Shown: in pieces, positions 4,480-43,611 of the stretch
Position numbering within the stretch: position 1 is the first letter of the stretch
How the letters are laid out: each line of letters begins with the position of its first letter
Source: Escherichia phage UGJNEcP1
Sequence record: OV754623
DNA length: 64,000 bases
Direction: 5' to 3' (one strand)
The notes under the pieces: generated by a model
What the model was told of the DNA's origin: nothing
The model's database searches: none
The model's input: only the letters and a program-made list of their open reading frames with translations
Translations under genes and position numbers: made by a program

Positions 4480-5142
4480 ATGGCAACACCAAAAGTGTCA
4501 TTTTCGCCTAGTGATATTCTATTTGGGTTGCTAGATCGTATTTTCAAAGATAACGCTACTGGAAAGGTTTTAATGTCCCGAGTAGCGGTAATTATTCTTT
4601 TGTTCCTAATGGCACTAATATGGTACAAAGGAAGTATTTTGCTGGATTATTATGTAAGAGCTAAGTATGATACTTATACTGAAATAATCCAAAAAGAACG
4701 AGCTTTACGTTTTGAATCTGCGGCTCTAGAACAACTGCAAATAGTTCATATCTCATCTGGTGCAGATTTTAGTGCTGTGTATTCTTTCAGACCTAAAAAC
4801 TTAAATTATTTTGTCGACCTTATAGCTTATGAAGGCAAACTACCTAGCACAATTTCTGAAAAGTCGCTTGGTGGATTCCCGGTGGATAAAACGGCTAATG
4901 AATATATAATTCATTTAAGTGGCCGTCATTTCTCATCTAAATCAGAATTTGCATTTTTGCCTACAAAATCTAAGACTGCCGAACTTTCTTATATGTATAG
5001 TTGTCCATACTTTAATTTGGATAACATCTATGCTGGAACTGTGGCGATGTATTGGTATAAGGGGAATAATAATATACTTGAGGAAGATCGCTTAGCGGCT
5101 ATATGCAACCAAGCGATCCGAATACTAGGAAGGGCTAAATAA
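4480..5142 (+). CDS. t: Holin T
   Basis: 220 aa; N-terminal SFSPSDILFG..DNATGKVL..SRVAV plus a single TM and large periplasmic domain match T4 holin. Confidence 0.9.
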   Translation: MATPKVSFSPSDILFGLLDRIFKDNATGKVLMSRVAVIILLFLMALIWYKGSILLDYYVRAKYDTYTEIIQKERALRFESAALEQLQIVHISSGADFSAVYSFRPKNLNYFVDLIAYEGKLPSTISEKSLGGFPVDKTANEYIIHLSGRHFSSKSEFAFLPTKSKTAELSYMYSCPYFNLDNIYAGTVAMYWYKGNNNILEEDRLAAICNQAIRILGRAK

Positions 5143-5415
5143 TTAGTTGTTAGAATACATCGCTAAATGACGATAAATATTTTCAAAACCTTCATTGAAT
5201 TCACTAATCAGTGTTTTCTTTTCTTCGGCAGTTAAATTTGTAATTAGTTTTCTAAAAGAATTCTGATTTAGCTGCCGACCATCTTTTTTAATTCCAATCT
5301 CATTCAAGAATCCGATGAAACTTGCTCGGTCTTCAACAATATCTTCCCTAGAGAATTTAATCAAAATAGAAGCAATAGTAATAATTTCACGTACAATTTC
5401 AATATCTTTATTCAT
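5143..5415 (-). CDS. asiA: Anti-sigma70 factor AsiA
   Basis: 90 aa; MNK.I..VREIIT.ASILIKFSREDIVE..A.F..FLNEIG matches T4 AsiA. Confidence 0.9.
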   Translation of the reverse strand: MNKDIEIVREIITIASILIKFSREDIVEDRASFIGFLNEIGIKKDGRQLNQNSFRKLITNLTAEEKKTLISEFNEGFENIYRHLAMYSNN

Positions 5416-5461
5416 AACGTTTTATTCATTCTACTTAGTTGATATGGATATAGTACCATTA

Positions 5462-5623
5462 TCAGTGTTGATTGTAAACAGCTTTTTCTACGCTTTTAAC
5501 GTAATTGACGTAGTCTTCCTGTTCGTACGAGTGTAAGGCTAAGAACAGAGCTAATAGTTCATTATAGACTAAAGCCTCACGCTCGCGTTCGGCCTCTACT
5601 ACGTTCTGAAGATTATGGCTCAT
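5462..5623 (-). CDS. Hypothetical small protein (about 53 aa)
   Basis: ORF from an internal ATG (MSHNLQ...) overlapping the stop of the upstream gene; no recognisable family. Confidence 0.3.
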   Translation of the reverse strand: MSHNLQNVVEAEREREALVYNELLALFLALHSYEQEDYVNYVKSVEKAVYNQH

Positions 5624-5912
5624 ACCGTTCCTTATAACTATCAATATAGTCCTGTATGTCGAAGAATGACATTTCATATTCTAGGGCATTAAGAGCCCGT
5701 TCTTCAGTATAGTCAGAACCAAAGACGATAGTGATTTCACCAGGCTTCATGTGATTGAAATCAACACTAAAAGGAATACGAGAACATACTTCGTCTGCCA
5801 TATCTGCAACAACACTACGATACACTTCTCGGTTAACCTGATAAAGCTCTGCAAGTTCTTCGCATCGAATAACAAGTTCAGTGGCAGGATTTTCTTTGAT
5901 TTTAGTAAGCAT
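5613..5912 (-). CDS. Acidic small protein at the arn position (possible Arn-like anti-restriction protein)
   Basis: About 100 aa from MLTKIKENPATEL; acidic; sits between asiA and motA where T4 has arn; identity from position only. Confidence 0.35.
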   Translation of the reverse strand: MLTKIKENPATELVIRCEELAELYQVNREVYRSVVADMADEVCSRIPFSVDFNHMKPGEITIVFGSDYTEERALNALEYEMSFFDIQDYIDSYKERYEP

Positions 5913-13186: not shown

Positions 13187-15400
13187 TTATTTGGCCGCTT
13201 CCACGGCCTTCATGAATTTAACGATTTGAGCGACCTGTTCTTTTGAAAGAGTACCACGTCGTCCCATGTATTCTGACACAATATGATAATTGGTTTCAAA
13301 TTCAATAACCATTTTATCATCATTATCGTAAGCATTATCTTTAAGCTTATCGAAAATTTTAGCACACAATTCTAACTTCCTGTTCAGGTCTGTATTAGTA
13401 GCACCTGCGAATCGATTCCATCCCCAGCGATTATTTACTGTTGAGAGTTTTGCAAAGTCTTTACTGATTTCTTTGTTCTTAGAGCTAAAATACTTACTAA
13501 GGAAGTTAAGCTCTTCATTACGAGTAATATGATTCAAATAAGGCTGTGCTCTACGACTTGGTGATACATACTCATCATAATCTACTTTATCGATTAGCAT
13601 AATATAGTCATTAATTGATTTTTCAAACAAACATTCTACTTCACCAAGTTTACGAACTTTCTTAGCAATCTGTGGGCGAACTACAGTGAACTCTTTAATA
13701 CCTGACAAATCGGCAATACGAGTCAAGAAATTAGAATCATAGTTCAACCAACCTTTATCTGCGTCAAGACATTCAGCGTTAGAACGATTACGAATTACAA
13801 CATAACCTTGAATCTCATCAGCTTTACCGGCCGGAATAAAGAGATCTTCTGATACCCAAACATCGTTTTCATTCTTAAAGAACCGATGAGCACTCGGCGA
13901 TTTAGGACGAGGCTGCGATGAACGTTCTTTAACTTCAATCCACGGTTTAACTAATGCAAGAATTTCAGATGTCTTATAAAATTTAAGGCTATCACCAGCG
14001 AAAATAACCTTTAATCGTTCCAGAAGTTTCATTGCAACTTCATCTTCCGGGTTAATGAATAATACGCTACTACCCCATCCGGAAGGAACCTTATCAACGA
14101 GTGTTGATGCATCGGTGGAAGTCAAAGCATCGTTCAGAGCACGCATCATTGGTACGCGGCCTTTCACATCGTCAATAACGATATCAATATGCTTACGACT
14201 AATACCTAGCAGGCTATTAATTGAAATAGTTGCAGACGAGCTTCCGCTTTCACGAATACGACGAAGTCGTGGGTCTGAAACGATATCATATACAACGCCA
14301 AGGTTGCACCATTCAGGTCCCATTTTAAAACGTTTGTACAACTCAGAATAAGTTAGTTGTTCTTTAGAGTATTTCAGTGATTCAATATTAGAACCGGCTT
14401 TTTCCATATATTTACGAGCAGAGTAACCAAGAGAATCGATTTCACGGAATACATGACGTGGATATTCACAATCAATCCATTTCTTAGAATCTTCAGCAAA
14501 TAATTTTGCATCGATTTCTGCAACACGTTTATGGATATTTGCTACTGTACGTTTATCAAATGACAATGCTTCACGAGACGGGGCTACATCTAGTTCACCC
14601 ATAGGGAATTTAATATAAGCTGTAGTGCATCGCGTCATCATCCATGTTTGTTCTTTAATAACACTTCCGATTGGATATACAATACCGCCATAAACAGCCA
14701 TGATATTACCACGTTCACCCCATGGAGCTTCCTTGGCCAAATATACATCGTCAAATTCAGGAAAGTATTTAATATCTTTAACACCGCGAACTTCTGCAAT
14801 ATCACCTAGAGGACGCATAACATATGCAATTTCAGATGCGAACTTTTCAAAATCTTCTGGGTTAACAGGTACAACTACTTCTACACCCGTACGGTCATCA
14901 GGACCCATCTTATCTACAAAGGTTGGCTTAATCTGTGGACCACTGTCATCTTGGTAGATTACGTAACCACGAACTTCACCGTTGTGATAAGACGTAAGGT
15001 TAAACGTATCAGTATATGCTAGCGGAGCTTTAGAGCCGAGTCCGAATCCACCAATGAAATCGTTACTCGATGTTTTAGTTGAAGCAAAATATGAGTTATA
15101 GATTCCTGGCTCTTCGTCATTACCTCGAATGGTGAAATCACTCATACCAGGACCAAAGTCTCGAACTACAAAACGTGGGTCTAAACGACCTGGTGCCTGA
15201 ACAATAAACTTATCAGTGCAACCATTAAGAATTTGTCCATCGATACAGTTTGTGATTAATTCACGTACACAAGCCAATTCTTTGTTTGTATAAAGGTCAT
15301 TAGACAAAATCTTATAAACTTTGCTATTGCCTTGAATAGTAAATGCTGTGCTCTTACCGCCTGAACCAATAATCGTTTCTTTAGCCGTTTCAATAATCAT
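13187..15400 (-). CDS. rIIA: rIIA protein (GHKL ATPase-like)
   Basis: 737 aa; position upstream of rIIB; N-terminal ATPase-like region with Gly-rich loops (DFGPGM, GGFGLGSK). Confidence 0.85.
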   Translation of the reverse strand: MIIETAKETIIGSGGKSTAFTIQGNSKVYKILSNDLYTNKELACVRELITNCIDGQILNGCTDKFIVQAPGRLDPRFVVRDFGPGMSDFTIRGNDEEPGIYNSYFASTKTSSNDFIGGFGLGSKAPLAYTDTFNLTSYHNGEVRGYVIYQDDSGPQIKPTFVDKMGPDDRTGVEVVVPVNPEDFEKFASEIAYVMRPLGDIAEVRGVKDIKYFPEFDDVYLAKEAPWGERGNIMAVYGGIVYPIGSVIKEQTWMMTRCTTAYIKFPMGELDVAPSREALSFDKRTVANIHKRVAEIDAKLFAEDSKKWIDCEYPRHVFREIDSLGYSARKYMEKAGSNIESLKYSKEQLTYSELYKRFKMGPEWCNLGVVYDIVSDPRLRRIRESGSSSATISINSLLGISRKHIDIVIDDVKGRVPMMRALNDALTSTDASTLVDKVPSGWGSSVLFINPEDEVAMKLLERLKVIFAGDSLKFYKTSEILALVKPWIEVKERSSQPRPKSPSAHRFFKNENDVWVSEDLFIPAGKADEIQGYVVIRNRSNAECLDADKGWLNYDSNFLTRIADLSGIKEFTVVRPQIAKKVRKLGEVECLFEKSINDYIMLIDKVDYDEYVSPSRRAQPYLNHITRNEELNFLSKYFSSKNKEISKDFAKLSTVNNRWGWNRFAGATNTDLNRKLELCAKIFDKLKDNAYDNDDKMVIEFETNYHIVSEYMGRRGTLSKEQVAQIVKFMKAVEAAK

Positions 15401-15412
15401 ATTTTTCTCTCA

Positions 15413-15613
15413 TCACAAGTTACGTTTAAAAATTTCTGCCACTTCGAGAAGTTCTTCTTTAGTAGCTGTATCGGTTTGTATTTTATATCGAATTTCTTTA
15501 AAGCGTTCTTTAAAGGACTCTGCTGACTCGATATCAAAAAATCTTTGGATAAGCCGGAATTCCCGGAGCACTGCTTTATCAAAAAGTTCCAAGTCCACGT
15601 TATATGTTCTCAT
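15413..15613 (-). CDS. Hypothetical protein (rIIA.1 position)
   Basis: 66-aa ORF directly upstream of rIIA. Confidence 0.45.
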   Translation of the reverse strand: MRTYNVDLELFDKAVLREFRLIQRFFDIESAESFKERFKEIRYKIQTDTATKEELLEVAEIFKRNL

Positions 15614-15705: not shown

Positions 15706-16806
15706 TTACGCTGTGAAGATTTTATCCCACATCGCAACAACTGCATCTCGGTTATACTTCTTCCATACTGCTTCAGCACGTTTAACTCGAGCTTCGTATG
15801 TGTCAGTGAATTCTAATACAGCTTTTGTGTAAAGCGCAACTACTTCTTTCTTAGGAGTAGAGGAATCAATTTCTACACGCACAGTATCTGGGTCGTATTC
15901 GAATGTCGCATGAGGATAATCCTTAAAAACTAACTGGATTACAGGGACACCTTTAGAGATGGCTTCAATAGAACTATTCTCTACAGTACCTGTGTCAGGA
16001 CACGTATTAATAAGTGCTTTAGCTGTTTTAAGACGTTCCATAATTTCACTGTGTGGAGCATCAATAATAACAGGATATTTAGCTGGTGGCGCCCATTTGC
16101 TTGGACAGTATCCTGCACCATTTTCGCCTAGTGCTTTAATCGCTTCAAGAGCAACATCAGTACGACGCATTTTAGTGTCATAACGTTGTGCACTAATAAT
16201 CAGATCCGTCGCCGGAAGAACTTCTGGCTTTTCAGTCAAACAAATAACCGGATAATCTTCGGCTTCAAACAACGGATTTGCTCGCCAATAATCATAATCA
16301 ATTTTGTCAGTCAGACCTGAAGTCATATAACAATATTTGCGTTCAAATTCACGGAAGGCTTTAGTAGGAGCATAACTCTTACCACCATTCTTATGAATTT
16401 GAATAGTCTGGTCCCAAATTTGAACAATGCCACGAGATACCGGTTCAAATGGTGTTGCCATAAAATTCTTATGAACTTTAGAGAGACCTGCGTCTTTAAT
16501 TGCCTGAACGGTTAGTTTAGTCGGTTCCATAGTAACAACAAAATCGTATTCATGGATGCCGGCTAGTTCAACAATCTTACGAGCCATAGTATAACTCATA
16601 CCTAGACTGAATTTAGTCAGATGACCAACAGGATGATGATTAACTTTCCAATCACCAAATGTGTCATTATCAAAACCGATATAATCAATATCAGCACCGA
16701 TGGACACAAGATATTTCAACACGTTCAAATGAACCGCTTCAAGACCACCTTGTACACGGTCAGGATTAAATGGGACTGCACGAGATGGGATAAACATAAC
16801 TTTCAT
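15706..16806 (-). CDS. GT-B (GT4-like) glycosyltransferase, candidate DNA sugar transferase
   Basis: 366 aa; N-terminal GGLEAVHLNVLKYL resembles the GT4 acceptor-domain motif; C-terminal TGTVENSSIEAISKGVPVI resembles the GT4 E-x7-E donor region; occupies the T4 gene 60 slot. Confidence 0.55.
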   Translation of the reverse strand: MKVMFIPSRAVPFNPDRVQGGLEAVHLNVLKYLVSIGADIDYIGFDNDTFGDWKVNHHPVGHLTKFSLGMSYTMARKIVELAGIHEYDFVVTMEPTKLTVQAIKDAGLSKVHKNFMATPFEPVSRGIVQIWDQTIQIHKNGGKSYAPTKAFREFERKYCYMTSGLTDKIDYDYWRANPLFEAEDYPVICLTEKPEVLPATDLIISAQRYDTKMRRTDVALEAIKALGENGAGYCPSKWAPPAKYPVIIDAPHSEIMERLKTAKALINTCPDTGTVENSSIEAISKGVPVIQLVFKDYPHATFEYDPDTVRVEIDSSTPKKEVVALYTKAVLEFTDTYEARVKRAEAVWKKYNRDAVVAMWDKIFTA

Positions 16807-16814
16807 AATTAAGC

Positions 16815-16850
16815 CTTATTAAAATTAAAATGAAGCTCCCGAAGGAGCTT
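16815..16850 (-). terminator. Hairpin/terminator at the end of gene 39
   Basis: Minus-strand hairpin aagctcc-ttcg-ggagctt right after the stop, followed by a T-rich tract. Confidence 0.45.
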
Positions 16851-18666
16851 AGGACATCCATTCTTTACGAAGTTCTGAATCATCACCCATCAACATTTCA
16901 AAGAGTTCTTTCCAATTTTCAGGAAGTTTAACTACGTCGTACACAGGGTTCTGAATCATTTCACGATATTCTGACTTTTCAAGGGAGCCTAATCCCTTGA
17001 TGTATCTAATACTATGCTTAGGCAGTGTATCTTTAACTTCTTCATACTCAGCTACAGTATAAAACCATTTTTGAGTTTTGCCAATTTGTGCAATAATTAC
17101 AGGCGTTTTAACAAAACGAATACGTCCTTGTTCAAACAATTCAGGCCAATTACTAAAGAAAGCAAGCAAAGCCGGATAGATACTTCCAAGACCGTCGTGA
17201 TCTGCATCGGTCATAATTGCAATATTACGATAGTTCGTATTCTCTGCCTTTTCACCAAGAATAAGACCTGTGATAGCACAGATATCGAAGAGCTCTTTGT
17301 TCTTCATCATATCGGCATATGACATACCCCAGCTATTCATCACCTTACCACGTAATGGGAATCCACCGTGTAGTTCACGGTCACGAACATCAATGAGATA
17401 ACCAATTGCCGAATCACCTTCTGTTAAAAACAATGTTGTATCTGCATCTTTACCGCATTGGTTAGCTTTAATATGCTTATGAACCTTAGCTTTAGTTGCC
17501 TTTTTAGCTGCTTTAGTTTCTGCAGCCTTTTCTGCCGCCAATTTACGAGCTAATGCTGCTTCAACAATAGGCATAATCAAGGCTTCGTTTTTAAGAAGTG
17601 CCTGAGCAATTTTCTTAGCATCTAATTGGATATGATTACGAATATCACCGTACGTTGACGTTAAACGCTCTTTAGTCTGAGAATCAAAACGCATGTTGCT
17701 CATGTCTCTAATAAACATCAACATTGTGAGACATTCTTTAACACGAGCTTTAGTGACTTCAATACCCTTATATTTCTTTTTAATACCTGGCAAAAGATGT
17801 TCACAGATATCATCCATTACACATTCAACATGATGACCACCATTTTTAGTATGGATGTTATTCACATAAGTTAAATGACGGAAGCCATCTGGTGATGTTG
17901 TGAATGCTATAGAAACTTTATCATTTTCTTGAATGATGTTATCTTCACCAAATTGTTTAGCAAATCGTTTAAAATTACCATCAACCTTTTTACCATTAAA
18001 TGTGAACTTGATATCAGGATAAACGACTGCCAATGTTTGAAGTCGGTCTAAAGTAATATCTAAATAAATTTGAGATAAATTGTGCTCTTCAAACGAAGAG
18101 AAATCAGGAGTGAAGATTACTTTAGTGCCTTTACCTTTAGATTTCTTAGAAGACCATGATTTGTTTTCCATTCCATTTGAACAGTTAACAGTGATTTCAT
18201 TTTCGCCATCTGACGTAATGCCTGTAAACAACGTAGAGAAGATATTAGTTAAACTACTCCCGACGCCATTCATACCACCAGTCTTGCGTTCAGAGTCATC
18301 ACCAAAGTTACCACCGGCCTTTGGAATAGTCCAGGCTGCTACAGGCCCAGGAATTTGTTCACCTGTTTGGTCGGTAACTAAACCTTGAGGAATACCACGT
18401 CCGTTATCTTCCACCGAAACTTGATTATTTTTAATTTGCACATCAATTTTATTTGCAAACTTAAATGATGTACGAATAGCTTCATCAACCGAGTTGTCAA
18501 TAATCTCATCGATTAATTTAACCAGACCAGGAACATATTCAACTTGTTGATATTTACCAAACAAAAAACGCTCATGTGCTTCTTTAGCTGAAGAACCAAT
18601 ATACATACCACTGCGTTTCTTAATATGTTCTACATCCGACAATACCTTAATTTCATTTTTAATCAT
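16849..18666 (-). CDS. 39: DNA topoisomerase II large subunit gp39 (GyrB-like), unsplit
   Basis: 605 aa continuous ORF with N-terminal GHKL ATPase and TOPRIM region (LTEGDSA); not split as in T4. Confidence 0.9.
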   Translation of the reverse strand: MIKNEIKVLSDVEHIKKRSGMYIGSSAKEAHERFLFGKYQQVEYVPGLVKLIDEIIDNSVDEAIRTSFKFANKIDVQIKNNQVSVEDNGRGIPQGLVTDQTGEQIPGPVAAWTIPKAGGNFGDDSERKTGGMNGVGSSLTNIFSTLFTGITSDGENEITVNCSNGMENKSWSSKKSKGKGTKVIFTPDFSSFEEHNLSQIYLDITLDRLQTLAVVYPDIKFTFNGKKVDGNFKRFAKQFGEDNIIQENDKVSIAFTTSPDGFRHLTYVNNIHTKNGGHHVECVMDDICEHLLPGIKKKYKGIEVTKARVKECLTMLMFIRDMSNMRFDSQTKERLTSTYGDIRNHIQLDAKKIAQALLKNEALIMPIVEAALARKLAAEKAAETKAAKKATKAKVHKHIKANQCGKDADTTLFLTEGDSAIGYLIDVRDRELHGGFPLRGKVMNSWGMSYADMMKNKELFDICAITGLILGEKAENTNYRNIAIMTDADHDGLGSIYPALLAFFSNWPELFEQGRIRFVKTPVIIAQIGKTQKWFYTVAEYEEVKDTLPKHSIRYIKGLGSLEKSEYREMIQNPVYDVVKLPENWKELFEMLMGDDSELRKEWMS

Positions 18667-37060: not shown

Positions 37061-37609
37061 TTAACGAGCCCATTTAATGATTTCTGTAATCAAATTATTA
37101 CGTTCGCTTGCATTAAATCCTATAACTTTGTTAGAACCATCATGATTAAGTAATTGATACGTTTGGATTTTGTTATGAATTGCAAACTCTTCAAAATGTG
37201 AAATGACTGTATTAAAACCGAATGAAGACAAAGTAATAAGGTCGTCTTCAAAACTTTCAGTCATTTCGTTACGTGTTAAAATAATTGTGAACACATCATG
37301 GTTTTGGCAAAGACGAACATAATCCTGTTCATAAACGTCAAGAACCGAGTCCGCATCTTGTCGAATACGTCCATAAACCCAGTTACTAATATATCCACGG
37401 TCTAATAGATAAATCTTAGTAGGGTCTAAATAATTCAACATCGTTTCGAAACAGCCAACTTCATTTCGAGACTTAACATCGAAACGCCCATCAACTGTTC
37501 GTTTAGGGAAATCAATCTTTACATATCTTTCACTAATTTCCATTATATCATTAATGAAAGTTGTTTTACCAGCATTATCCGGCCCGTCTACTAAAATAAT
37601 TTTAGCCAT
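37061..37609 (-). CDS. Thymidylate-kinase-like P-loop nucleotide kinase
   Basis: 182 aa; Walker A GPDNAGKTT near the N-terminus and DRGYISNWVYG resembling the Tmk DR-Y..S..AY substrate motif. Confidence 0.55.
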   Translation of the reverse strand: MAKIILVDGPDNAGKTTFINDIMEISERYVKIDFPKRTVDGRFDVKSRNEVGCFETMLNYLDPTKIYLLDRGYISNWVYGRIRQDADSVLDVYEQDYVRLCQNHDVFTIILTRNEMTESFEDDLITLSSFGFNTVISHFEEFAIHNKIQTYQLLNHDGSNKVIGFNASERNNLITEIIKWAR

Positions 37610-37610
37610 T

Positions 37611-38510
37611 TTATTCCTCGATTACGACATCTTCGTATTTAGGTATATTATACGGTGAAGAAATTAAAGCATTAAAGTAGATGAACTCACCAAGACCTGG
37701 ATGGAATACTTCTTCAGGATTTTCGAAATATTGAATCTTCGGACGTCCTTTAAGAATTTGATAGTACTCAGTTTTAGTTGGATTAAAAATTCGAATCAGC
37801 GCTTCTTCAGGATACTTATTTCTGTCGAAACTATTATTTGGATCAGTTATATAAAGCGGTTGACCTAATTGAATTGCGCATTCAACCACTTGTTCAAAAC
37901 GATAGCATGGGTCACTAATTCGAAATGGATGAAAAATACCATCTAGATGAATAGGAGCCAAATCACCTACAAGACGCTGCATGACGGAAGGACGTATAAC
38001 TTTCTGCGTTACGATAATCTTATTACCATCTGCACCTGCGTTAACCAGCACTTCTTTTTGACGTTCATTCAACATAGTAGTTTGAAGTGAACGATTAACA
38101 GACAACATGTCGGTTTTTAAGAATTCATCAATATAAAAACGTGGTTTATTAGGGTCTGCAGTGATATTGAAATTGAATTCTACATCAAAAGCGCCGTCAT
38201 ATCCAGTGATATCTGTGATTAGAAAATCACAATCATAATAAGCAATTAATGAATCAACCACAAATTCATTTTCAGACCAAAAATATTTACGAGTGTTATA
38301 CGCGTTATCTTTATACCATAATGGAACAAACTTAAATTCTGGGAAAAGACGTTCACATTCTTTAATATCAGATGCATTACGTGGATATGTAATCACATCA
38401 CCCGGATTAGCACGGTGCAAATGAAGTTGGAAGTTGCCATCCTTAAGGATAGCATACTGTCCAGTTTCATAAGACCGCATACTCAAGATAGGTACGCGGA
38501 AAATAGCCAT
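37611..38510 (-). CDS. Hypothetical protein in the beta-gt slot (candidate DNA-modifying enzyme)
   Basis: 299-aa ORF directly downstream of and overlapping gene 42; positional analogue of T4 beta-gt; no clear family motif. Confidence 0.45.
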   Translation of the reverse strand: MAIFRVPILSMRSYETGQYAILKDGNFQLHLHRANPGDVITYPRNASDIKECERLFPEFKFVPLWYKDNAYNTRKYFWSENEFVVDSLIAYYDCDFLITDITGYDGAFDVEFNFNITADPNKPRFYIDEFLKTDMLSVNRSLQTTMLNERQKEVLVNAGADGNKIIVTQKVIRPSVMQRLVGDLAPIHLDGIFHPFRISDPCYRFEQVVECAIQLGQPLYITDPNNSFDRNKYPEEALIRIFNPTKTEYYQILKGRPKIQYFENPEEVFHPGLGEFIYFNALISSPYNIPKYEDVVIEE

Positions 38511-39226
38511 TAGTCAAGGAATCCTTTAACATAATCAAAATCACGTTCAAACACATGGGCACTTACCATGGTATGAGTATAATCACCAACTTCTACACCA
38601 CATTCGTTAGCGATATAATGAAGTAATTTTCCTTGGAGATAAAAATCCAACTGCATAACAACAGCACAGTTCTGGGAACGCATATGACAGTGGGTATAAA
38701 GCTTACCATCACGAATATAATAAGTCACTGAGTCAGTACATGGATATTCAAGCGTTTCGTCCGAATCAAGCAAAGCCTGATCAGAACTTTCTAGAATTTG
38801 GAACACAACTCTTCGGGAGTTAGGCTTCTCTTTAAGTTCTTTTAGAAGAGCTGGTAATTGAGCCGCAATGCGAGGGCCATAGAAAGTGTTGAAGTTCGCC
38901 GGCAAAACATCTGATTTTGGTTTAGAAATAAATTTAGCGACATTAGGATATGCCTTAAACGCTTCTTCTGCGTTGGTACCACCAGAAATCATAAACTTCC
39001 AGAAGTCTTCGGCATATTCATAAGAGATGCGGTTAATACGTGGGTCGGTCATTTTGAATGATGATGGAGTGTCAACAACCACTGTCATAGACCCAATTTC
39101 ATTACAACGTCCAATACGAGAATCAGTTACGAATTCCGGGTTTTCTAAAATTTCACGATTGACTGCTTTAAATGCGGCTTGAAAATCTGCGGCTTTGATA
39201 TATTTCATTGTGTTATGTTTTCCCAT
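38510..39226 (-). CDS. 42: dCMP hydroxymethylase gp42 (thymidylate-synthase fold)
   Basis: 238 aa; EYPCTDSVTYYIRDGKL...HMRSQN aligns with T4 gp42 catalytic Cys region MCTNTVQYLIRD...NMRSND. Confidence 0.7.
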   Translation of the reverse strand: MGKHNTMKYIKAADFQAAFKAVNREILENPEFVTDSRIGRCNEIGSMTVVVDTPSSFKMTDPRINRISYEYAEDFWKFMISGGTNAEEAFKAYPNVAKFISKPKSDVLPANFNTFYGPRIAAQLPALLKELKEKPNSRRVVFQILESSDQALLDSDETLEYPCTDSVTYYIRDGKLYTHCHMRSQNCAVVMQLDFYLQGKLLHYIANECGVEVGDYTHTMVSAHVFERDFDYVKGFLD

Positions 39227-39268
39227 GTTTACCTCAATACAATTTATTATATACTCAATTCGTAAAGC

Positions 39269-39508
39269 TTATTTGAATTTCTTGACAATGTTGATATAAC
39301 GTAAAGCTTCAGCATCGATACTTCCAAGAACACTATGAAGAAATGCATCAGCGTAATATTCTAGTTGAACAGGTTCTTTAATCACTTTAGCCGCTTTAGT
39401 TTCAAACAGGCCCATCAGGGCCTTTTTAAGAATTTGTTCGTTAGTGTTCAGTTTAATAGTCAAAATCTCTTCGTTAAGTTGGTGGTTAAAAGTTTTTCTA
39501 GAAATCAT
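39269..39508 (-). CDS. Hypothetical protein (79 aa)
   Basis: ORF between the U32-like gene and gene 42; start overlaps the upstream stop. Confidence 0.45.
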   Translation of the reverse strand: MISRKTFNHQLNEEILTIKLNTNEQILKKALMGLFETKAAKVIKEPVQLEYYADAFLHSVLGSIDAEALRYINIVKKFK

Positions 39509-40665
39509 TCCGGGTACCTCAAAGCGTCATCAGAGTTAGTTATATCAATAATAGATATAGAGTTTTCTGCTAACCCGTTTTTAGATAATTGACGTTTATA
39601 ATATCTTTCACAATATGTACACGTCGTCCCGCAGATTTCATTAGCACAATCGAAATCTGGATGTCTGAACCACCTTTTTTCTAAAAAGCCATCTAACAAA
39701 GAGGTTTCAATATTTACTGTATGTGAAAACTCAGTTTCGTTTTCAAGAGTGAAAATAGTCTCTAAAGGCTTCCACAGTTCTAACAAATTACCTTCAAACT
39801 TTTCAGAAGCGTATGCTTCAAGAACTTTCAAAATGTAGTCTGTGCTACCTGTACGTCCTGAAACTTTGAATTGAGTGATACCAATATCATTATAAAGTTT
39901 CAAATCTTGAGGACGAACAAAACGAGTTCTCAACCAGTTAAATGGGTCTGTATCACGAGCTTTAATACAGTGCTGCATAGGATATCCGTTTAAGGATTTA
40001 GCATCATCGGCTGTAACATCAGTACTATGGAAAATATAGCAAGAGTCACGATAGCTACAATGTGTTGTATACCCTTTACCAGCATTAGAACAGAACTCAT
40101 TTACAAGAACTTCAAATATTATATTGTTCTTATTGCAAAACTCTGCTGCACGCTTCAGGAAAGAAACTGAACGGTTCTTATGAATTCCACAGCAGACCTT
40201 TTTGATATTATATTGGTCATGCAAGTATTTGATTTGAGTTACAGCATCGACATGTAGAATTGTTGAAACTTCAATCTCAATGTCTTTATTGACTTCACGA
40301 ACAATTTCCATAACAACAGGGTTAGCGATAGTAATACGCCATACGCCTATTGACCAAAGATACTGAACATAATCCTGAATAGCTTTCTTCTTCCACTCAA
40401 CTAGTTCTCTTTTTGAACCAGGATTTATCGTGTTGAGTGTATAGTTAAAGCAAATACCTAATTCGTTACAACGTTTAACGTAATCTTCTAACATCTTTTT
40501 GTCAACGTCAGGAAGCCTAAAATCAGGTCTGGCTGCTACAAAAGCCATTTCTCTTGTAGAGCCGTATACTTCATTTATCAAGCTATTAGGATAAGTTTTA
40601 TTGAGCTCTACGATTTTATCAAGAAGAGCTAAATCAAAATTCGTTCCGATTTTAAAAGTATTCAT
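39505..40665 (-). CDS. Cys-rich protein resembling peptidase U32 family (TIM-barrel, Fe-S type)
   Basis: 386 aa; N-terminal FKIGTNFDLALL..INEVYGS and central NRSVSFLKRA...EVLVNEFCSNAGKGYTTHC resemble the U32 signature region; C-terminal CANEICGTTCTYC contains C-x3-C-x2-C. Confidence 0.4.
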   Translation of the reverse strand: MNTFKIGTNFDLALLDKIVELNKTYPNSLINEVYGSTREMAFVAARPDFRLPDVDKKMLEDYVKRCNELGICFNYTLNTINPGSKRELVEWKKKAIQDYVQYLWSIGVWRITIANPVVMEIVREVNKDIEIEVSTILHVDAVTQIKYLHDQYNIKKVCCGIHKNRSVSFLKRAAEFCNKNNIIFEVLVNEFCSNAGKGYTTHCSYRDSCYIFHSTDVTADDAKSLNGYPMQHCIKARDTDPFNWLRTRFVRPQDLKLYNDIGITQFKVSGRTGSTDYILKVLEAYASEKFEGNLLELWKPLETIFTLENETEFSHTVNIETSLLDGFLEKRWFRHPDFDCANEICGTTCTYCERYYKRQLSKNGLAENSISIIDITNSDDALRYPE

Positions 40666-40719
40666 TTTTTACATCTCGCGTTAATTGATGCGATGGTTTT
40701 TTTGCAGGTCTTACTTAAA

Positions 40720-41124
40720 TTATTGTAGATTCGGTTTATATGATTTAAATGTTTCGAATTCGCCTTTATTCATAAGAGCTTTGAATTCGTCAGGACGCAT
40801 AGCTTTGTCGTCGATAATCCAATCATATACTGGTTTATGTGTTAGCAAATTATGGTACTTCAAGCCAATGTTTGCCAAGTTCTGAATCAGACTTGGGAGA
40901 ATGTCAATTGCTATACGACCAGGACCTACTGACTTCATACCGCGAGCAGTGTAAAGCGTTATGGTATGCCCTGCATCATACAGGGCATTAATGGCAGACA
41001 CCATTTCGACGTCTGGTTTGAAGTTCACGTAATCACGATTGTTATTCCACTCTGTTATACAATCATCGACATCAAAACAAAGATTAAGCATGTTTTCTAC
41101 ACGGTGCATTAGATTCGTTCCCAT
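40720..41124 (-). CDS. Small HAD-superfamily phosphatase
   Basis: 134 aa; motif I FDVDDCIT, motif II Thr (ITLYTAR), motif III Lys (THKP), motif IV IIDD. Confidence 0.6.
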   Translation of the reverse strand: MGTNLMHRVENMLNLCFDVDDCITEWNNNRDYVNFKPDVEMVSAINALYDAGHTITLYTARGMKSVGPGRIAIDILPSLIQNLANIGLKYHNLLTHKPVYDWIIDDKAMRPDEFKALMNKGEFETFKSYKPNLQ

Positions 41125-42794
41125 TGATGAGTGATATCGCCACCGATTGGACGATAAGAAACACCAGTTTCTTTATCAGTTAGTACCCATTTACCAGGAT
41201 TTTTTGTAATCAGAGTAGCCGTTACAGGCTCTGCTACGTCATAACTAATAGAGCCGTCTTGAAGTACACGGCCCATGTTACGTAATTGCTTAGTCAGAAG
41301 TTCCATACCTTTATAATATGCGGCTACCGCTTTAAGTGGATTATTCTTGAAATAACCACCTAATGCAATCCAGATAATTGCCACCGCCAAATGATGATAC
41401 TCGTTAAACGAACTCATCTTTCCATATTTGTAAATTAATGGATTGATGTTAATAGTCACATTACAAGTTGTTTCATCAATAGTAAACTGTCCCCAGGTCG
41501 GATTAGCATTGAATTCATCATAACCTGAAACAGCATAAAGCACTTTAGCTTCATCGTACAATTTTGGCCCGTAAATCTTGGTTTCGCCAAAATATCCACG
41601 AGGGTCGATAAACTTGACTTCGCCGTTATCAGTAATCATAGTATTACTGAAGTTCGGGTCACCGTGAATAACAGAGTACTGTCCCTGAGAACGGTTATGA
41701 TAACGAATAAGGTGTTCTAAAGCTTGTTTCAGCATTGGCTTCAGACGTCCAATCTTAGTGTAGTTCACGTGTGTGATTTTACCAAATGAATCAATCAATG
41801 GTTGAATGCTTTCACAACGATCAATAACTTTCGTATAGAATTCTTTAGTGAAATCACGACGAACAGTTTCAGGACTTACAAAATAAGTGTCTGTGCTGAA
41901 TTTCAGTGCATCTAAAATTGCATCAACAATTTGTGGACGAGCAAGACTTGATTTGGATTTAATATATTCAAATGCCGGCTTACCTTTAATGCGTTCCATT
42001 TCAAAGTTATTTTCATTAACAGAAACTAACTGAGGAACTGAATCTGATTTCACTTTAAGATACCATGAAATCTCATCTTTCTGAAGAGCTCGGCCCTGTT
42101 CGGTTAATGCGAATTTAGTTACAGTTTCTTCACCAATTTCAACTGCATTAAAACTACGATTAAGTTCACGAACTTCATGAGCCTTTTCAAGTTTAGGCAT
42201 ATCACCTAAATCAATTAGATTCATAAGCTCTGATTTATTGAATGCACTCCCGTAAAGGAATTCTACAAAATCACGTCCTTTGCAATATTCGTGAATTTCC
42301 TCATCAGTAGAACCCATGTAGAATTCCCAGTCTTTGAACTGATAAATTCCTACAACATTACCACCTGTTGAACCTACGTTAGTGATATTTTCACCGTCGA
42401 AATTATATCGACATTCGTCACCCTTAACATAGATTGCGTTAACATTCCAAGACCATGAACCAAAATCAGGAATAATATCACACCAGTTAACAATTACGTT
42501 ATGGCCGTCTAAATCTTTGTGTAATTTAGCAAGAGCATAAGCAGAACCATACGCTTCATCAACTGTACGAATAGTCACATTGAACCCTTCTTGCTCACAA
42601 TAAGCTCGAACAGTTTCAGCAAATTTTGAATGAACTACTACAATAATTTCATCTGCGCCAAGGTCAGAATAAATTGTATACAAATTGCTCAGAATAGTGT
42701 CTTGTTTATAGTTAACAAGCACCTTAGGAATATGATGCGTTATTGGATACAAACGAGTTGCCAGTCCAGCACCAAGAATAACAGCTTTTTTCAT
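41109..42794 (-). CDS. Bifunctional sugar-1-phosphate nucleotidyltransferase / APH-like kinase
   Basis: 561 aa; N-terminal RmlA/GlmU-type signature AVILGAGLATRLYPIT; C-terminal HGDPNFSNTMI and FIDPRG resemble the catalytic loop of aminoglycoside/choline/anomeric-sugar kinases; RBS gagga. Confidence 0.65.
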   Translation of the reverse strand: MKKAVILGAGLATRLYPITHHIPKVLVNYKQDTILSNLYTIYSDLGADEIIVVVHSKFAETVRAYCEQEGFNVTIRTVDEAYGSAYALAKLHKDLDGHNVIVNWCDIIPDFGSWSWNVNAIYVKGDECRYNFDGENITNVGSTGGNVVGIYQFKDWEFYMGSTDEEIHEYCKGRDFVEFLYGSAFNKSELMNLIDLGDMPKLEKAHEVRELNRSFNAVEIGEETVTKFALTEQGRALQKDEISWYLKVKSDSVPQLVSVNENNFEMERIKGKPAFEYIKSKSSLARPQIVDAILDALKFSTDTYFVSPETVRRDFTKEFYTKVIDRCESIQPLIDSFGKITHVNYTKIGRLKPMLKQALEHLIRYHNRSQGQYSVIHGDPNFSNTMITDNGEVKFIDPRGYFGETKIYGPKLYDEAKVLYAVSGYDEFNANPTWGQFTIDETTCNVTININPLIYKYGKMSSFNEYHHLAVAIIWIALGGYFKNNPLKAVAAYYKGMELLTKQLRNMGRVLQDGSISYDVAEPVTATLITKNPGKWVLTDKETGVSYRPIGGDITHQWERI

Positions 42795-42835
42795 GTTGAA
42801 GTCCTCATTGGTAAGTAGGAGTATTGTACACTATT

Positions 42836-42979
42836 CTAGTTAAAGCATTCATACTTTGCTTGTAGTCCAATCATAATCCATCCGATTATAAGAGTCGGAA
42901 TCATTACCGGAGCCGTTAAGCTCCAGTAGATAGTCATGACAAGCATCAATAGTAAAAGTCCTATTGTTATTGCTTTCAT
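42836..42979 (-). CDS. Small membrane protein (about 47 aa)
   Basis: Hand-translated MKAITIGLLLLMLVMTIYWSLTAPVMIPTLIIGWIMIGLQAKYECFN; ATGA overlap with the SIS gene stop; below the track cutoff. Confidence 0.4.
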   Translation of the reverse strand: MKAITIGLLLLMLVMTIYWSLTAPVMIPTLIIGWIMIGLQAKYECFN

Positions 42980-43611
42980 TGTTCGCCTCGTAACATGGCA
43001 CCTAGTGCACCGCCTGGATGGAACTTAAGGAAGTCATTAGAGGTAAATCCACGTTCAGACGAAAGGTTGATAGCAAACGTATCGATAAGCGCTAACAACA
43101 ATGTAGTGGACATAGTCGGAGCCAGAGAATTCTCATCAACCTCTACCGCGATGCCTGTACAGAAAGAGTAATCAAAAAGGGCTTCATTTTCTTGCGGAAT
43201 GTCTGGGTTACAATGCAACAGAATCTGTTTGACGTTCGGTCGAATCATTTTAAGATGCTTAGCCACGCCTATCATTTCTTCAGTTTTACCAGAACGACTA
43301 ATATGAATCAACACATCATTAGGCGCAATGAATCCTGCGTCACCGTGAGAATAATGTCCAGTGTTCAAGTACATACTCGGGATACCGAGTGAAGCAAATG
43401 TCTCAGAAGCTTTAGTTGCAATATTAGCATTCTTACCAACACCTGTAATAATTACTCGGCTTTCATAATTACTAAGTCCAGGGCGTCGAAGAGTTTCTAG
43501 AATAGCATTATAACGAGCAGGGTTTTGACTAATTACTTTGGCCATAGCGGCCAAAGAAGAAGCTTGTTTTATGATTGCGTCAATAGCGATAGTAATAGGA
43601 GTAGTTTTCAT
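42976..43611 (-). CDS. SIS-domain sugar-phosphate isomerase, KdsD/KpsF-type arabinose-5-phosphate isomerase-like
   Basis: 211 aa; ITGVGKNANIATKASETFASLGIPS, HGDAGF, ISRSGKTEE, LAPTMSTT and FHPGGALG align with KdsD GMGKSGHIGKK.AATFASTGTPS / HGDLGM / ISNSGE / LAPTSSTT / HPGGALG; lacks the CBS domains. Confidence 0.7.
   Translation of the reverse strand: MKTTPITIAIDAIIKQASSLAAMAKVISQNPARYNAILETLRRPGLSNYESRVIITGVGKNANIATKASETFASLGIPSMYLNTGHYSHGDAGFIAPNDVLIHISRSGKTEEMIGVAKHLKMIRPNVKQILLHCNPDIPQENEALFDYSFCTGIAVEVDENSLAPTMSTTLLLALIDTFAINLSSERGFTSNDFLKFHPGGALGAMLRGEQ

Follow-up and report, generated by a model that had tools for sequence, protein, structure and literature searches.

The stretch of DNA analyzed here (the window) comprises 64,000 nucleotides of Escherichia phage UGJNEcP1 (OV754623) and is that of a Mosigvirus, an RB69-like phage. 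Between positions 15706 and 16806 of its minus strand, the ORF listing holds exactly one long open reading frame, which runs from an ATG start to a TAA stop and encodes 366 amino acids. Using this listing together with orthology and an AlphaFold (AF2) model, we assigned the product as a GT-B glycosyltransferase (GT) and as the orthologue of RB69 ORF003c/gp3. The ORF is genuine and uninterrupted, and purifying selection acts on it. It was found in 163 phage records at 90–100% DNA identity, and it differs from its RB69 counterpart by 25 nucleotides (2 amino acid changes) and from that of Bas47 by 59 nucleotides (8 amino acid changes); since it is kept in so many records with mostly synonymous substitutions, it is not a chance ORF. 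The downstream neighbour is rIIA.1 (15413..15613, minus strand; 71% identical to T4 rIIA.1), and on the other side lies gene 39 (16849..18666, minus strand), which by homology to T4 and the RB69 annotation encodes a full-length topoisomerase II large subunit of 605 aa. A short stretch (16807..16850, minus strand) separates the stop of gene 39 from the GT start. It contains a 7-bp hairpin (16833-16850) whose loop is UUCG and, after it, a T-rich run, as well as a ribosome-binding site, the Shine-Dalgarno-like AAGG, 7 nt ahead of the ATG. A promoter search of the region returned 11 promoter-like sites where 13.1 were expected from shuffled sequence, none of them above chance. As no promoter stands out near the GT gene, it is probably co-transcribed with gene 39.

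An earlier reading made from the sequence without database searches (the sequence-only reading) had placed this gene in the slot of gene 60. T4 indeed carries 60, 60.1, and mobA between rIIA.1 and 39, but the idea that the GT gene replaced gene 60 was rejected, as gp60 sequence is present in the window and fused to gp39: residues 1-473 of T4 gp39 are 79% identical to the gene 39 product, and residues 27-159 of T4 gp60 are 87% identical to the translation of 17250..16852, inside gene 39. With the coding content of gene 60 thus accounted for, the GT gene is an extra gene between 39(+60) and rIIA.1. Base composition likewise gave no sign of horizontal transfer (GC 0.397 for the gene, 0.371 for the window).

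The gene is not new. Its product shares 99.5% identity with RB69 ORF003c/gp3 (NP_861693.1), encoded at the same locus, from which it departs only by the few conservative substitutions T191N and T327I (window residue given first), and PHROG 8302 matches it end to end (E 2e-222). ORF003c was proposed as 'the' arabinosyltransferase by Thomas et al. in 2018 (PMC6024577), the Bas47 orthologue is annotated as 'putative hmC-arabinosyltransferase' (MZ501047.1), and the glycosyltransferase of phage HY126, with 98% identity to the window protein, was crystallised and released in 2025 in apo form (PDB 9iqz) and with bound UDP (9ir0). RB69 gp3 carries no experimentally-confirmed flag in PMC13326640.

Scans of the 366-aa protein against Pfam (including Glycos_transf_1 PF00534 and Glyco_trans_4) and NCBIfam gave no match at E cutoffs of 1 or 0.01, so that the protein had to be placed in a family by its structure. 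A single-sequence AlphaFold run reached a pLDDT of only 37, which was remedied by an 11-sequence family alignment, yielding an AF2 model with a pLDDT of 90.6. In this model the fold is GT-B, with two Rossmann-like domains, a cleft between them, and structural similarity to GT4 enzymes, and it is predicted to be closest to the retaining members of that group. Outside the family, the solved structures nearest to it were PimA, WaaG/WaaB, BshA, MshA, and a tetrahydrobiopterin glucosyltransferase. The earlier description of the protein as GT-B/GT4-like therefore holds at the level of the fold, but neither a Pfam/NCBIfam match nor the canonical C-terminal EX7E goes with it, in distinction from its GT4 relatives. 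In the alignment to P0018, which is a PF00534 protein and the nearest outsider to the family among 1.84 billion proteins (E 5e-5), the first Glu position of the motif is occupied by Thr272. Instead, the family has an invariant E276 five residues before E281 (T272...E276-x4-E281, i.e. EX4E); E281, R208, and R214 are near-invariant, and the G20-G21 loop is kept. The spacing of R208 and R214 appears to match that of PimA R196/K202, which we take to be a diphosphate-binding pair. One family member in addition gave a sub-threshold match to PF20706, 'GT4-conflict'. All in all, the GT4 enzymes and their relatives (BshA, PimA/PimB', MshA, WaaG/WaaB, sucrose-phosphate synthase) share only 9-14% identity with the window protein, and they differ from it in the proposed chemistry, where the acceptor would be a sugar on DNA, the donor a furanose, and the product beta-linked.

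The glucosyltransferases of T4 belong to other families, alpha-GT to GT72 and beta-GT to GT63. As the sequence-only reading had stated, neither is found in this phage: tblastn with T4 proteins over the whole window gave no similarity to alpha-gt or beta-gt below E = 1, and the 366-aa protein resembles neither of them in sequence or closely in structure. The likeness to T4 is a functional one, in that hydroxylated cytosine in DNA is decorated from UDP-sugars by phage enzymes, with 5hmC as the base and Glc as the sugar in T4, and 5-hydroxycytosine (5hoC) and arabinofuranose (Araf) in the pathway of the window.

The window holds a full set of genes for such a pathway at 37061-43611, all on the minus strand, comprising the synthase for 5-hydroxy-dCMP (5hodCMP), the genes for UDP-arabinofuranose synthesis, and a proposed base-proximal transferase. 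The synthase is a 238-aa thymidylate-synthase homologue (38510..39226; RB69 gp48; Pfam Thymidylat_synt) that is all but identical to the crystallised 5hodCMP synthase (PDB 9iqc/9ir2/9iqu) and only 25% identical to T4 gp42, and 5hodCMP synthase activity of RB69 gp48 was shown in PMC13326640. The base is therefore 5-hydroxycytosine, and the hmC acceptor assumed in the sequence-only reading has to be given up; the sugar is D-arabinofuranose, not glucose. Synthesis of the sugar nucleotide is represented by a 211-aa arabinose-5-phosphate isomerase (42976..43611; RB69 gp55; NCBIfam KpsF/GutQ and KdsD, E 2e-32), by a 561-aa bifunctional sugar kinase/UDP-arabinose pyrophosphorylase (41109..42794), and by a 134-aa HAD-type phosphatase (40720..41124; RB69 gp51; NCBIfam capsule-biosynthesis phosphatase). 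The 561-aa protein corresponds, in intact form, to RB69 gp52:53, with a Pfam NTP_transferase match in its N-terminal part and weak kinase matches in its C-terminal part; it is AfhE-like, and the role of this type of bifunctional enzyme was described in PMC13326640, where the AfhF-like phosphatase was proposed to convert Araf-1,5-bisphosphate into Araf-1-phosphate. A 386-aa peptidase-U32-family protein (39505..40665; RB69 gp50; Pfam PF01136, E 7e-11) is encoded between the synthase and the phosphatase; it is shared by 221 phage records with identities of 80% or more, and the organism breakdown of these names no Acinetobacter phage.

The proposed base-proximal transferase is a 299-aa protein (37611..38510), collinear with RB69p046+047 and the intact equivalent of RB69 gp46:47. 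It is homologous to DLP3 gp79 and Thanatos TH1_063, and a direct comparison revealed no sequence similarity to the 366-aa protein. Its family was proposed to act as the first (alpha) arabinosyltransferase on 5-hydroxycytosine (PMC13326640), which bears out the earlier suggestion that the 366-aa protein works together with it; both transferases of the pathway had thus been picked out correctly from the raw sequence. Homologues of the 299-aa protein were found in 348 phage records, where they nearly always adjoin a thymidylate-synthase homologue. Beside the gene in the window lies that of a 182-aa thymidylate-kinase-like nucleotide kinase (37061..37609; RB69 gp45), assigned by RB69 collinearity and a weak dTMP-kinase match, and this kinase is conserved beside the 299-aa family in DLP1, DLP3, and Thanatos.

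The 366-aa GT family, by comparison, is small and narrow. A word-indexed search recovered 5 clusters and a profile search 10, and an exhaustive HMMER search of 1.84 billion representatives ended at about 10 true members, so that no deep alignment is possible. Counted by records, the family comprises 211, all from Mosigvirus and Acinetobacter phages, whereas the 299-aa family occurs far more widely and in many genera, a distribution in keeping with a core role of the 299-aa family and an accessory one of the 366-aa family. The DLP1 and DLP3 homologues of the 366-aa GT are encoded inside the arabinosylation cluster, unlike the window gene with its rIIA/39 location, and a metagenomic contig has a family member immediately next to a gene of the 299-aa family. 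The two DLP3 proteins match the window protein over the full length (gp77, 43% identity, E 1e-109; gp76, 41%, E 1e-99), share the conserved G20-G21, R208, R214, E276, and E281, and belong to the same pathway. They form a duplicated pair with 58% mutual identity, and the bond formed by one of the two is presumably 1->5 instead of 1->3. Relative to the two Acinetobacter paralogues, the window protein is an outgroup (41-44% identity to them), which means that linkage specificity is not transferable by orthology. In vitro, gp76 and gp77 together added a further (third) arabinose from UDP-Araf onto RB69 DNA, but no single GT was active (PMC13326640), and the family may thus need a partner.

We compared the number of family copies with published DNA chemistry; this comparison runs across phages, and the virion DNA of the window phage itself lies outside it. 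Thanatos has no family member, and its DNA is mono-arabinosylated (PMC13326640). The family is also absent from every record of Serratia-host phages; the DNA of the Serratia phage LC53, whose own record lies outside the family count, is mono-arabinosylated. RB69, NP, and Bas46/47 have one copy and carry mono- plus di-arabinosylated DNA, and DLP3 has two copies and DNA that is up to tri-arabinosylated. Family copies of 0, 1, and 2 therefore track the number of beta-arabinose extensions, and at this comparative level the presence of the gene goes with poly-arabinosylated 5hoC in virion DNA. The anomeric configurations follow the same division: the base-proximal sugar is alpha, while both extension sugars of DLP3 and the single one of RB69 are beta-D-Araf, so that one family corresponds to one anomeric outcome. 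This correlation could have been broken by Thanatos TH1_065, a 378-aa protein at the position of DLP gp77, had it been a hidden family member; BLASTP and hhalign were negative, however, and Pfam identified it as Peptidase_U32.

Taking the DNA chemistry of RB69, NP, and Bas46/47 as established, along with the orthology, the fold, the UDP binding of the orthologue, and the occurrence of all other pathway genes in the window, we consider it likely that the 366-aa protein is a soluble, UDP-sugar-binding GT-B enzyme and the 'second' DNA arabinosyltransferase of Mosigviruses. The DNA sugar transferase of the sequence-only reading would then indeed be part of a DNA sugar-modification pathway, but probably as an extender and not as 'the' transferase that modifies the base. 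In the proposed pathway, the thymidylate-synthase homologue would make 5-hydroxy-dCMP, and ribulose-5-P would be converted to UDP-D-arabinofuranose by the isomerase, the bifunctional kinase/uridylyltransferase, and the HAD phosphatase. The 299-aa transferase would put alpha-D-arabinofuranose on O5 of 5-hydroxycytosine, after which the 366-aa enzyme would use UDP-Araf to place a second arabinofuranose on O3 of this first sugar, already on DNA, giving beta-D-Araf-(1->3)-alpha-D-Araf-5-hydroxycytosine. The second-step glucosyltransferase of T2/T6 likewise extends a sugar already on DNA, building gentiobiosyl-hmC. A UDP-linked donor is indicated both by the orthologue crystal and by the use of UDP-Araf by gp76 and gp77. 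Our inference is that polymerised DNA is the substrate of the 366-aa enzyme and that the beta-(1->3) bond is formed by it and not by the 299-aa protein. Two results count against the role given to the 299-aa family in this reading: for TH1_063, UDP-xylose pyrophosphorylase activity but no glycosylation of plain DNA was reported, and DLP3 gp79 was inactive on 5hoC-DNA (PMC13326640).

These same two results could be taken to mean that the 366-aa enzyme is the primary transferase, adding the first arabinose to the modified cytosine as the 2018 proposal for ORF003c and, in essence, the sequence-only reading would have it, and that the 299-aa protein works elsewhere, e.g. in sugar-nucleotide synthesis. 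We regard this as improbable, because Thanatos DNA is arabinosylated without any member of the 366-aa family, as would be, judging from their arabinosylation genes, that of many Klebsiella, Serratia, Yersinia, and Proteus phages. In phages lacking the family, the 299-aa protein is the sole GT-fold candidate, so something other than the 366-aa enzyme must perform the first transfer; moreover, the sugars attributable to the 366-aa family are all beta, in contrast to the alpha sugar next to the base. Somewhat less probable still is a protein that is weak or inactive on its own and serves as the acceptor-recognition or processivity subunit of a complex, for instance with the 299-aa transferase as its partner or as a homo-oligomer on the replisome. 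The combined requirement for gp76 and gp77 and the replacement of the first Glu of EX7E by Thr272 are consistent with such a role, but conserved glutamates, arginines, and a glycine loop like these typically mark an intact nucleotide-sugar site, UDP is bound in the crystal of the orthologue, and a pairing of the gp76/gp77 type cannot apply to the single copy in Mosigviruses. A non-DNA acceptor, be it host LPS or lipid, a phage protein, or a small molecule, is very unlikely. The nearest solved structures are of enzymes such as PimA, WaaG/WaaB, and BshA, and some database records name the protein after them, and homology to lipid-directed transferases was what the sequence-only reading had singled out as speaking against its proposal; yet this likeness is confined to the fold (10-14% identity for the lipid-directed enzymes) and is outweighed by the 41-43% identity to enzymes that act on DNA, the only real homologues occur in phages with arabinosylated DNA, and the gene strictly co-occurs with the genes for 5hoC and UDP-Araf.

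The second-arabinosyltransferase reading raises a stereochemical point. Judging from the fold comparisons in the papers and our structure comparison of the 366-aa protein, the two arabinosyltransferases of the pathway both resemble enzymes of GT4, which is a retaining clan. Since their products are alpha and beta and they presumably share one UDP-Araf donor, one of the two must invert. The 366-aa enzyme could be the inverter, i.e. a beta-arabinofuranosyltransferase on a GT4-type scaffold with a remodelled EX4E site, although we hold this only as a tentative and rather doubtful idea. A further possibility is that the first sugar is added at the nucleotide level and that the 366-aa enzyme is the only one of the pathway to act on polymerised DNA, which would explain why a dedicated nucleotide kinase is encoded next to the 299-aa gene and why DLP3 gp79 was inactive on 5hoC-DNA.

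Arabinosylated 5-hydroxycytosine is a DNA hypermodification that was clarified only recently (2025-2026). With this modification, RB69-like, Serratia, Klebsiella, and Acinetobacter phages are protected against restriction enzymes, DNA glycosylases, and some CRISPR systems, and the degree of protection appears to be tuned by the number of sugars. The thicker sugar coat would hinder restriction enzymes, DNA glycosylases, and CRISPR nucleases. In Mosigviruses, which include many candidates for phage therapy, the second sugar is likely determined by the 366-aa GT gene.

The window is collinear with phage RB69 (genus Mosigvirus), and the 366-aa open reading frame at 15706..16806 (minus strand) is a real gene. 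It is the sole long ORF at this position in the ORF listing, runs from an ATG start to a TAA stop, and is preceded by an AAGG ribosome-binding site 7 nt upstream of the start; its base composition is in no way unusual. The gene recurs in 163 phage records with DNA identities of 90-100% and is identical (100%) in Escherichia phage UGJNEcP2, while its product shares 99.5% identity with RB69 ORF003c (NP_861693.1), a protein of equal length encoded at the same position. Differences from its relatives were overwhelmingly synonymous (25 nt and 2 aa versus RB69; 59 nt and 8 aa versus Bas47).

Downstream of the glycosyltransferase (GT) gene lie rIIA.1 (15413-15613, minus strand, 71% identity to T4 rIIA.1) and rIIA (13187-15400), and upstream lies gene 39 (16849-18666, minus strand), encoding a 605-aa gp39. 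The sequence-only reading assigned the gene to the gene 60 slot, and in T4 it is indeed genes 60, 60.1 and mobA that sit between rIIA.1 and 39. Replacement of gene 60 was nevertheless rejected, because its sequence is retained as a fusion to gene 39: residues 27-159 of T4 gp60 match the C-terminal part of the window's gp39 (17250..16852) at 87% identity. The GT gene is therefore an additional gene between the fused 39+60 and rIIA.1. Just upstream of the GT ribosome-binding site, at 16833-16850 (minus strand), is a 7-bp hairpin capped by a UUCG tetraloop. Its first two bases are the final two of the gene 39 stop codon, a T-rich run follows it, and it could be a partial terminator or mRNA-stability element. 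In Shigella phage JK45, the intact GT gene is immediately followed by a second copy of its last 411 nt (136 codons; 1501-1911), which is annotated as a separate ORF and has its own BFVD entry; the repeat could stem from partial tandem duplication or from an error in assembly.

The gene belongs to the family of phage DNA arabinosyltransferases that includes RB69 gp3, the HY126 GT and DLP3 gp76-77. No Pfam or NCBIfam match was obtained for the protein, which corresponds end to end to phrog_8302 (PHROGs, labelled 'unknown function'), and a PDB sequence search returned a 98%-identical chain (9iqz/9ir0). The AlphaFold model, built from an 11-sequence family alignment, was confident (pLDDT 90.6, pTM 0.87), and its predicted fold is the GT-B, GT4-like one that had been proposed from sequence. 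Conserved throughout the family are the G20-G21 loop, R208 and R214, and the '...E281-A-I-S-x-G-x-P-V' helix; we take the R208/R214 spacing to be that of the diphosphate-binding pair of PimA. The EX7E motif is remodelled, with Thr272 at the first Glu position (in the alignment to the nearest outsider, a Pfam Glycos_transf_1 protein) and an invariant E276 five residues ahead of E281.

When 1.84 billion representative proteins were searched exhaustively with HMMER, only ~10 true family members (36-43% identity) emerged, and word-indexed searches concurred. Among 50,697 phage records the family was present in 211, namely in Mosigviruses of Escherichia and Shigella (at least 96% identity) and in Acinetobacter T4-like phages (~43% identity, two copies each), with nothing between these groups. 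A distant 394-aa member (35% identity) on a JGI metagenome T4-like contig (3040-4224) adjoins DNA ligase and DsbA genes, and the gene thus fills different hyperplastic slots in different T4-like phages. In BFVD, the closest non-family viral structures were two unnamed proteins, one of them A0A7D7JJK2 (TM 0.76, 17% identity), and a glycosyltransferase each from Rhizobium phage RL2RES and Sinorhizobium phage phiM9. Glycosylated 5-hydroxycytosine (5hoC) is also a component of Rhizobium phage RL38J1 DNA, a hint that the clade of 5hoC-sugar transferases is wider.

Every other gene of the RB69 arabinosyl-5hoC pathway (PMC13326640) is present in the window: a thymidylate-kinase-like nucleotide kinase (37061-37609, minus strand), a 299-aa protein (37611-38510, minus strand), a thymidylate-synthase homologue (38510-39226), a U32-family protein (39505-40665), a HAD phosphatase (40720-41124), a 561-aa bifunctional kinase/uridylyltransferase (41109-42794, minus strand) and an arabinose-5-phosphate isomerase (42976-43611). 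The 299-aa and 561-aa ORFs, which the RB69 reference splits into gp46 + gp47 and gp52/gp53, are intact here, and this supports the published view that the splits are sequencing errors (PMC13326640). The synthase homologue shows virtually no difference from PDB 9iqc/9ir2/9iqu, entries numbered next to 9iqz/9ir0, and shares just 25% identity with T4 gp42. The sequence-only reading had assumed hmC as the modified base; by NMR, RB69 cytosines are beta-D-Araf-(1->3)-alpha-D-Araf-5-hydroxy-dC (Araf, arabinofuranose) and not arabinosyl-hmC, with one more beta-D-Araf-(1->5) in DLP3 DNA (PMC13326640).

[quoted passage not shown] Its family is one of DNA arabinosyltransferases, but several lines of evidence favour a role in the second step, in which the first sugar is extended. 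The protein shares 43% identity with DLP3 gp77 and 41% with gp76, a pair that jointly transfers one more arabinose from UDP-Araf onto RB69 DNA in vitro (PMC13326640). All sugars attributable to the family are beta-linked, whereas the base-proximal sugar is alpha. Furthermore, family copy number tracks arabinosylation: Thanatos (mono) has none, RB69, NP and Bas46/47 (mono and di) have one, and DLP3 (up to tri) has two. The 378-aa Thanatos TH1_065, considered as a hidden member, was rejected as a U32 protein. LC53, a phage of Serratia sp. ATCC 39006, is mono-arabinosylated, and no Serratia-host phage among the 50,697 records has a family member, a comparison at host level. The 299-aa protein has a far broader distribution, occurring in 348 records from many genera and almost invariably beside a thymidylate-synthase homologue, the pattern expected of a core, first-step enzyme. 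In DLP1 and DLP3 the gp3 homologues are located inside the arabinosylation cluster, and on a metagenomic contig a member directly abuts a 299-aa-family gene. Published proposals also place the gp3 type at the second step (PMC13326640). [quoted passage not shown]

The assignment has its limits. In the accessible literature, the RB69 gp3 role is a proposal and not a demonstration, and DLP3 gp76 and gp77 are active only in combination (PMC13326640). The two Acinetobacter paralogues share 58% identity and the window protein falls outside the pair as an outgroup, so its 1->3 specificity follows from chemistry and gene count and not from orthology. A citing paper states that deletion of 'the arabinosyltransferase Aat' sensitised Bas46 to a defence system, and leaves the deleted gene unspecified. 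Nor is the 299-aa family biochemically secure as the first-step enzyme, and its literature conflicts: TH1_063 (Thanatos-1 4995-5897, 47% identical) is reported to convert UTP and xylose-1-P into UDP-xylose and to leave plain DNA unglycosylated (AEM 2025), whereas the family was assigned as first arabinosyltransferase although DLP3 gp79 was inactive on 5hoC-DNA (NAR 2026, PMC13326640). The thymidylate-kinase-like gene directly adjoins the 299-aa gene in Mosigvirus, DLP1/DLP3 and Thanatos; RB69 dNMP kinase gp159 already phosphorylates 5hodCMP (PMC13326640). This raises the possibility that the mononucleotide is what receives the first arabinose, a step that would call for a dedicated kinase.

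The U32-family protein of the cluster (39505-40665, minus strand) is 386 aa long and corresponds to RB69 gp50 (Pfam Peptidase_U32 E 7e-11, weak UbiU match). The U32 members RlhA, TrhP and UbiU/V perform O2-independent hydroxylations, including that yielding 5-hydroxycytidine in rRNA, and the phage protein could be an anaerobic route to 5-hydroxycytosine that complements the O2/flavin-dependent synthase. Its conservation is unusually high (at least 80% identity in 221 phage records; 82% in Thanatos versus only 47% for the 299-aa transferase). The organism breakdown of these 221 records names no phage of Acinetobacter, a strictly aerobic genus. About 40 Escherichia phages with the 299-aa gene seem to be without it, and it is not discussed in the text of PMC13326640.

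The GT gene itself was already known: it was proposed as an arabinosyltransferase in 2018 (RB69 ORF003c; PMC6024577), annotated as 'putative hmC-arabinosyltransferase' in the Bas47 record (MZ501047.1), crystallised as an orthologue with UDP (PDB 9ir0, released 2025) and placed as 'beta-arabinosyltransferase 2' in 2026 (PMC13326640). Our finding is therefore a correct rediscovery, although the sequence-only reading was wrong in some details (hmC, the gene 60 slot, "the" transferase). By fold, both pathway transferases resemble retaining GT4-type enzymes (gp3 in our model, gp46:47 in PMC13326640), and their products differ, one being alpha and the other beta. A single UDP-Araf donor presumably serves both. 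With UDP-beta-D-Araf as this donor, the GT would simply retain, as GT4-like transferases ordinarily do, and inversion would fall to the 299-aa enzyme; other natural NDP-furanoses are 1,2-cis, as UDP-beta-D-Araf would be. An alpha donor would instead make the GT an inverting enzyme built on a GT4 scaffold, an unusual arrangement.
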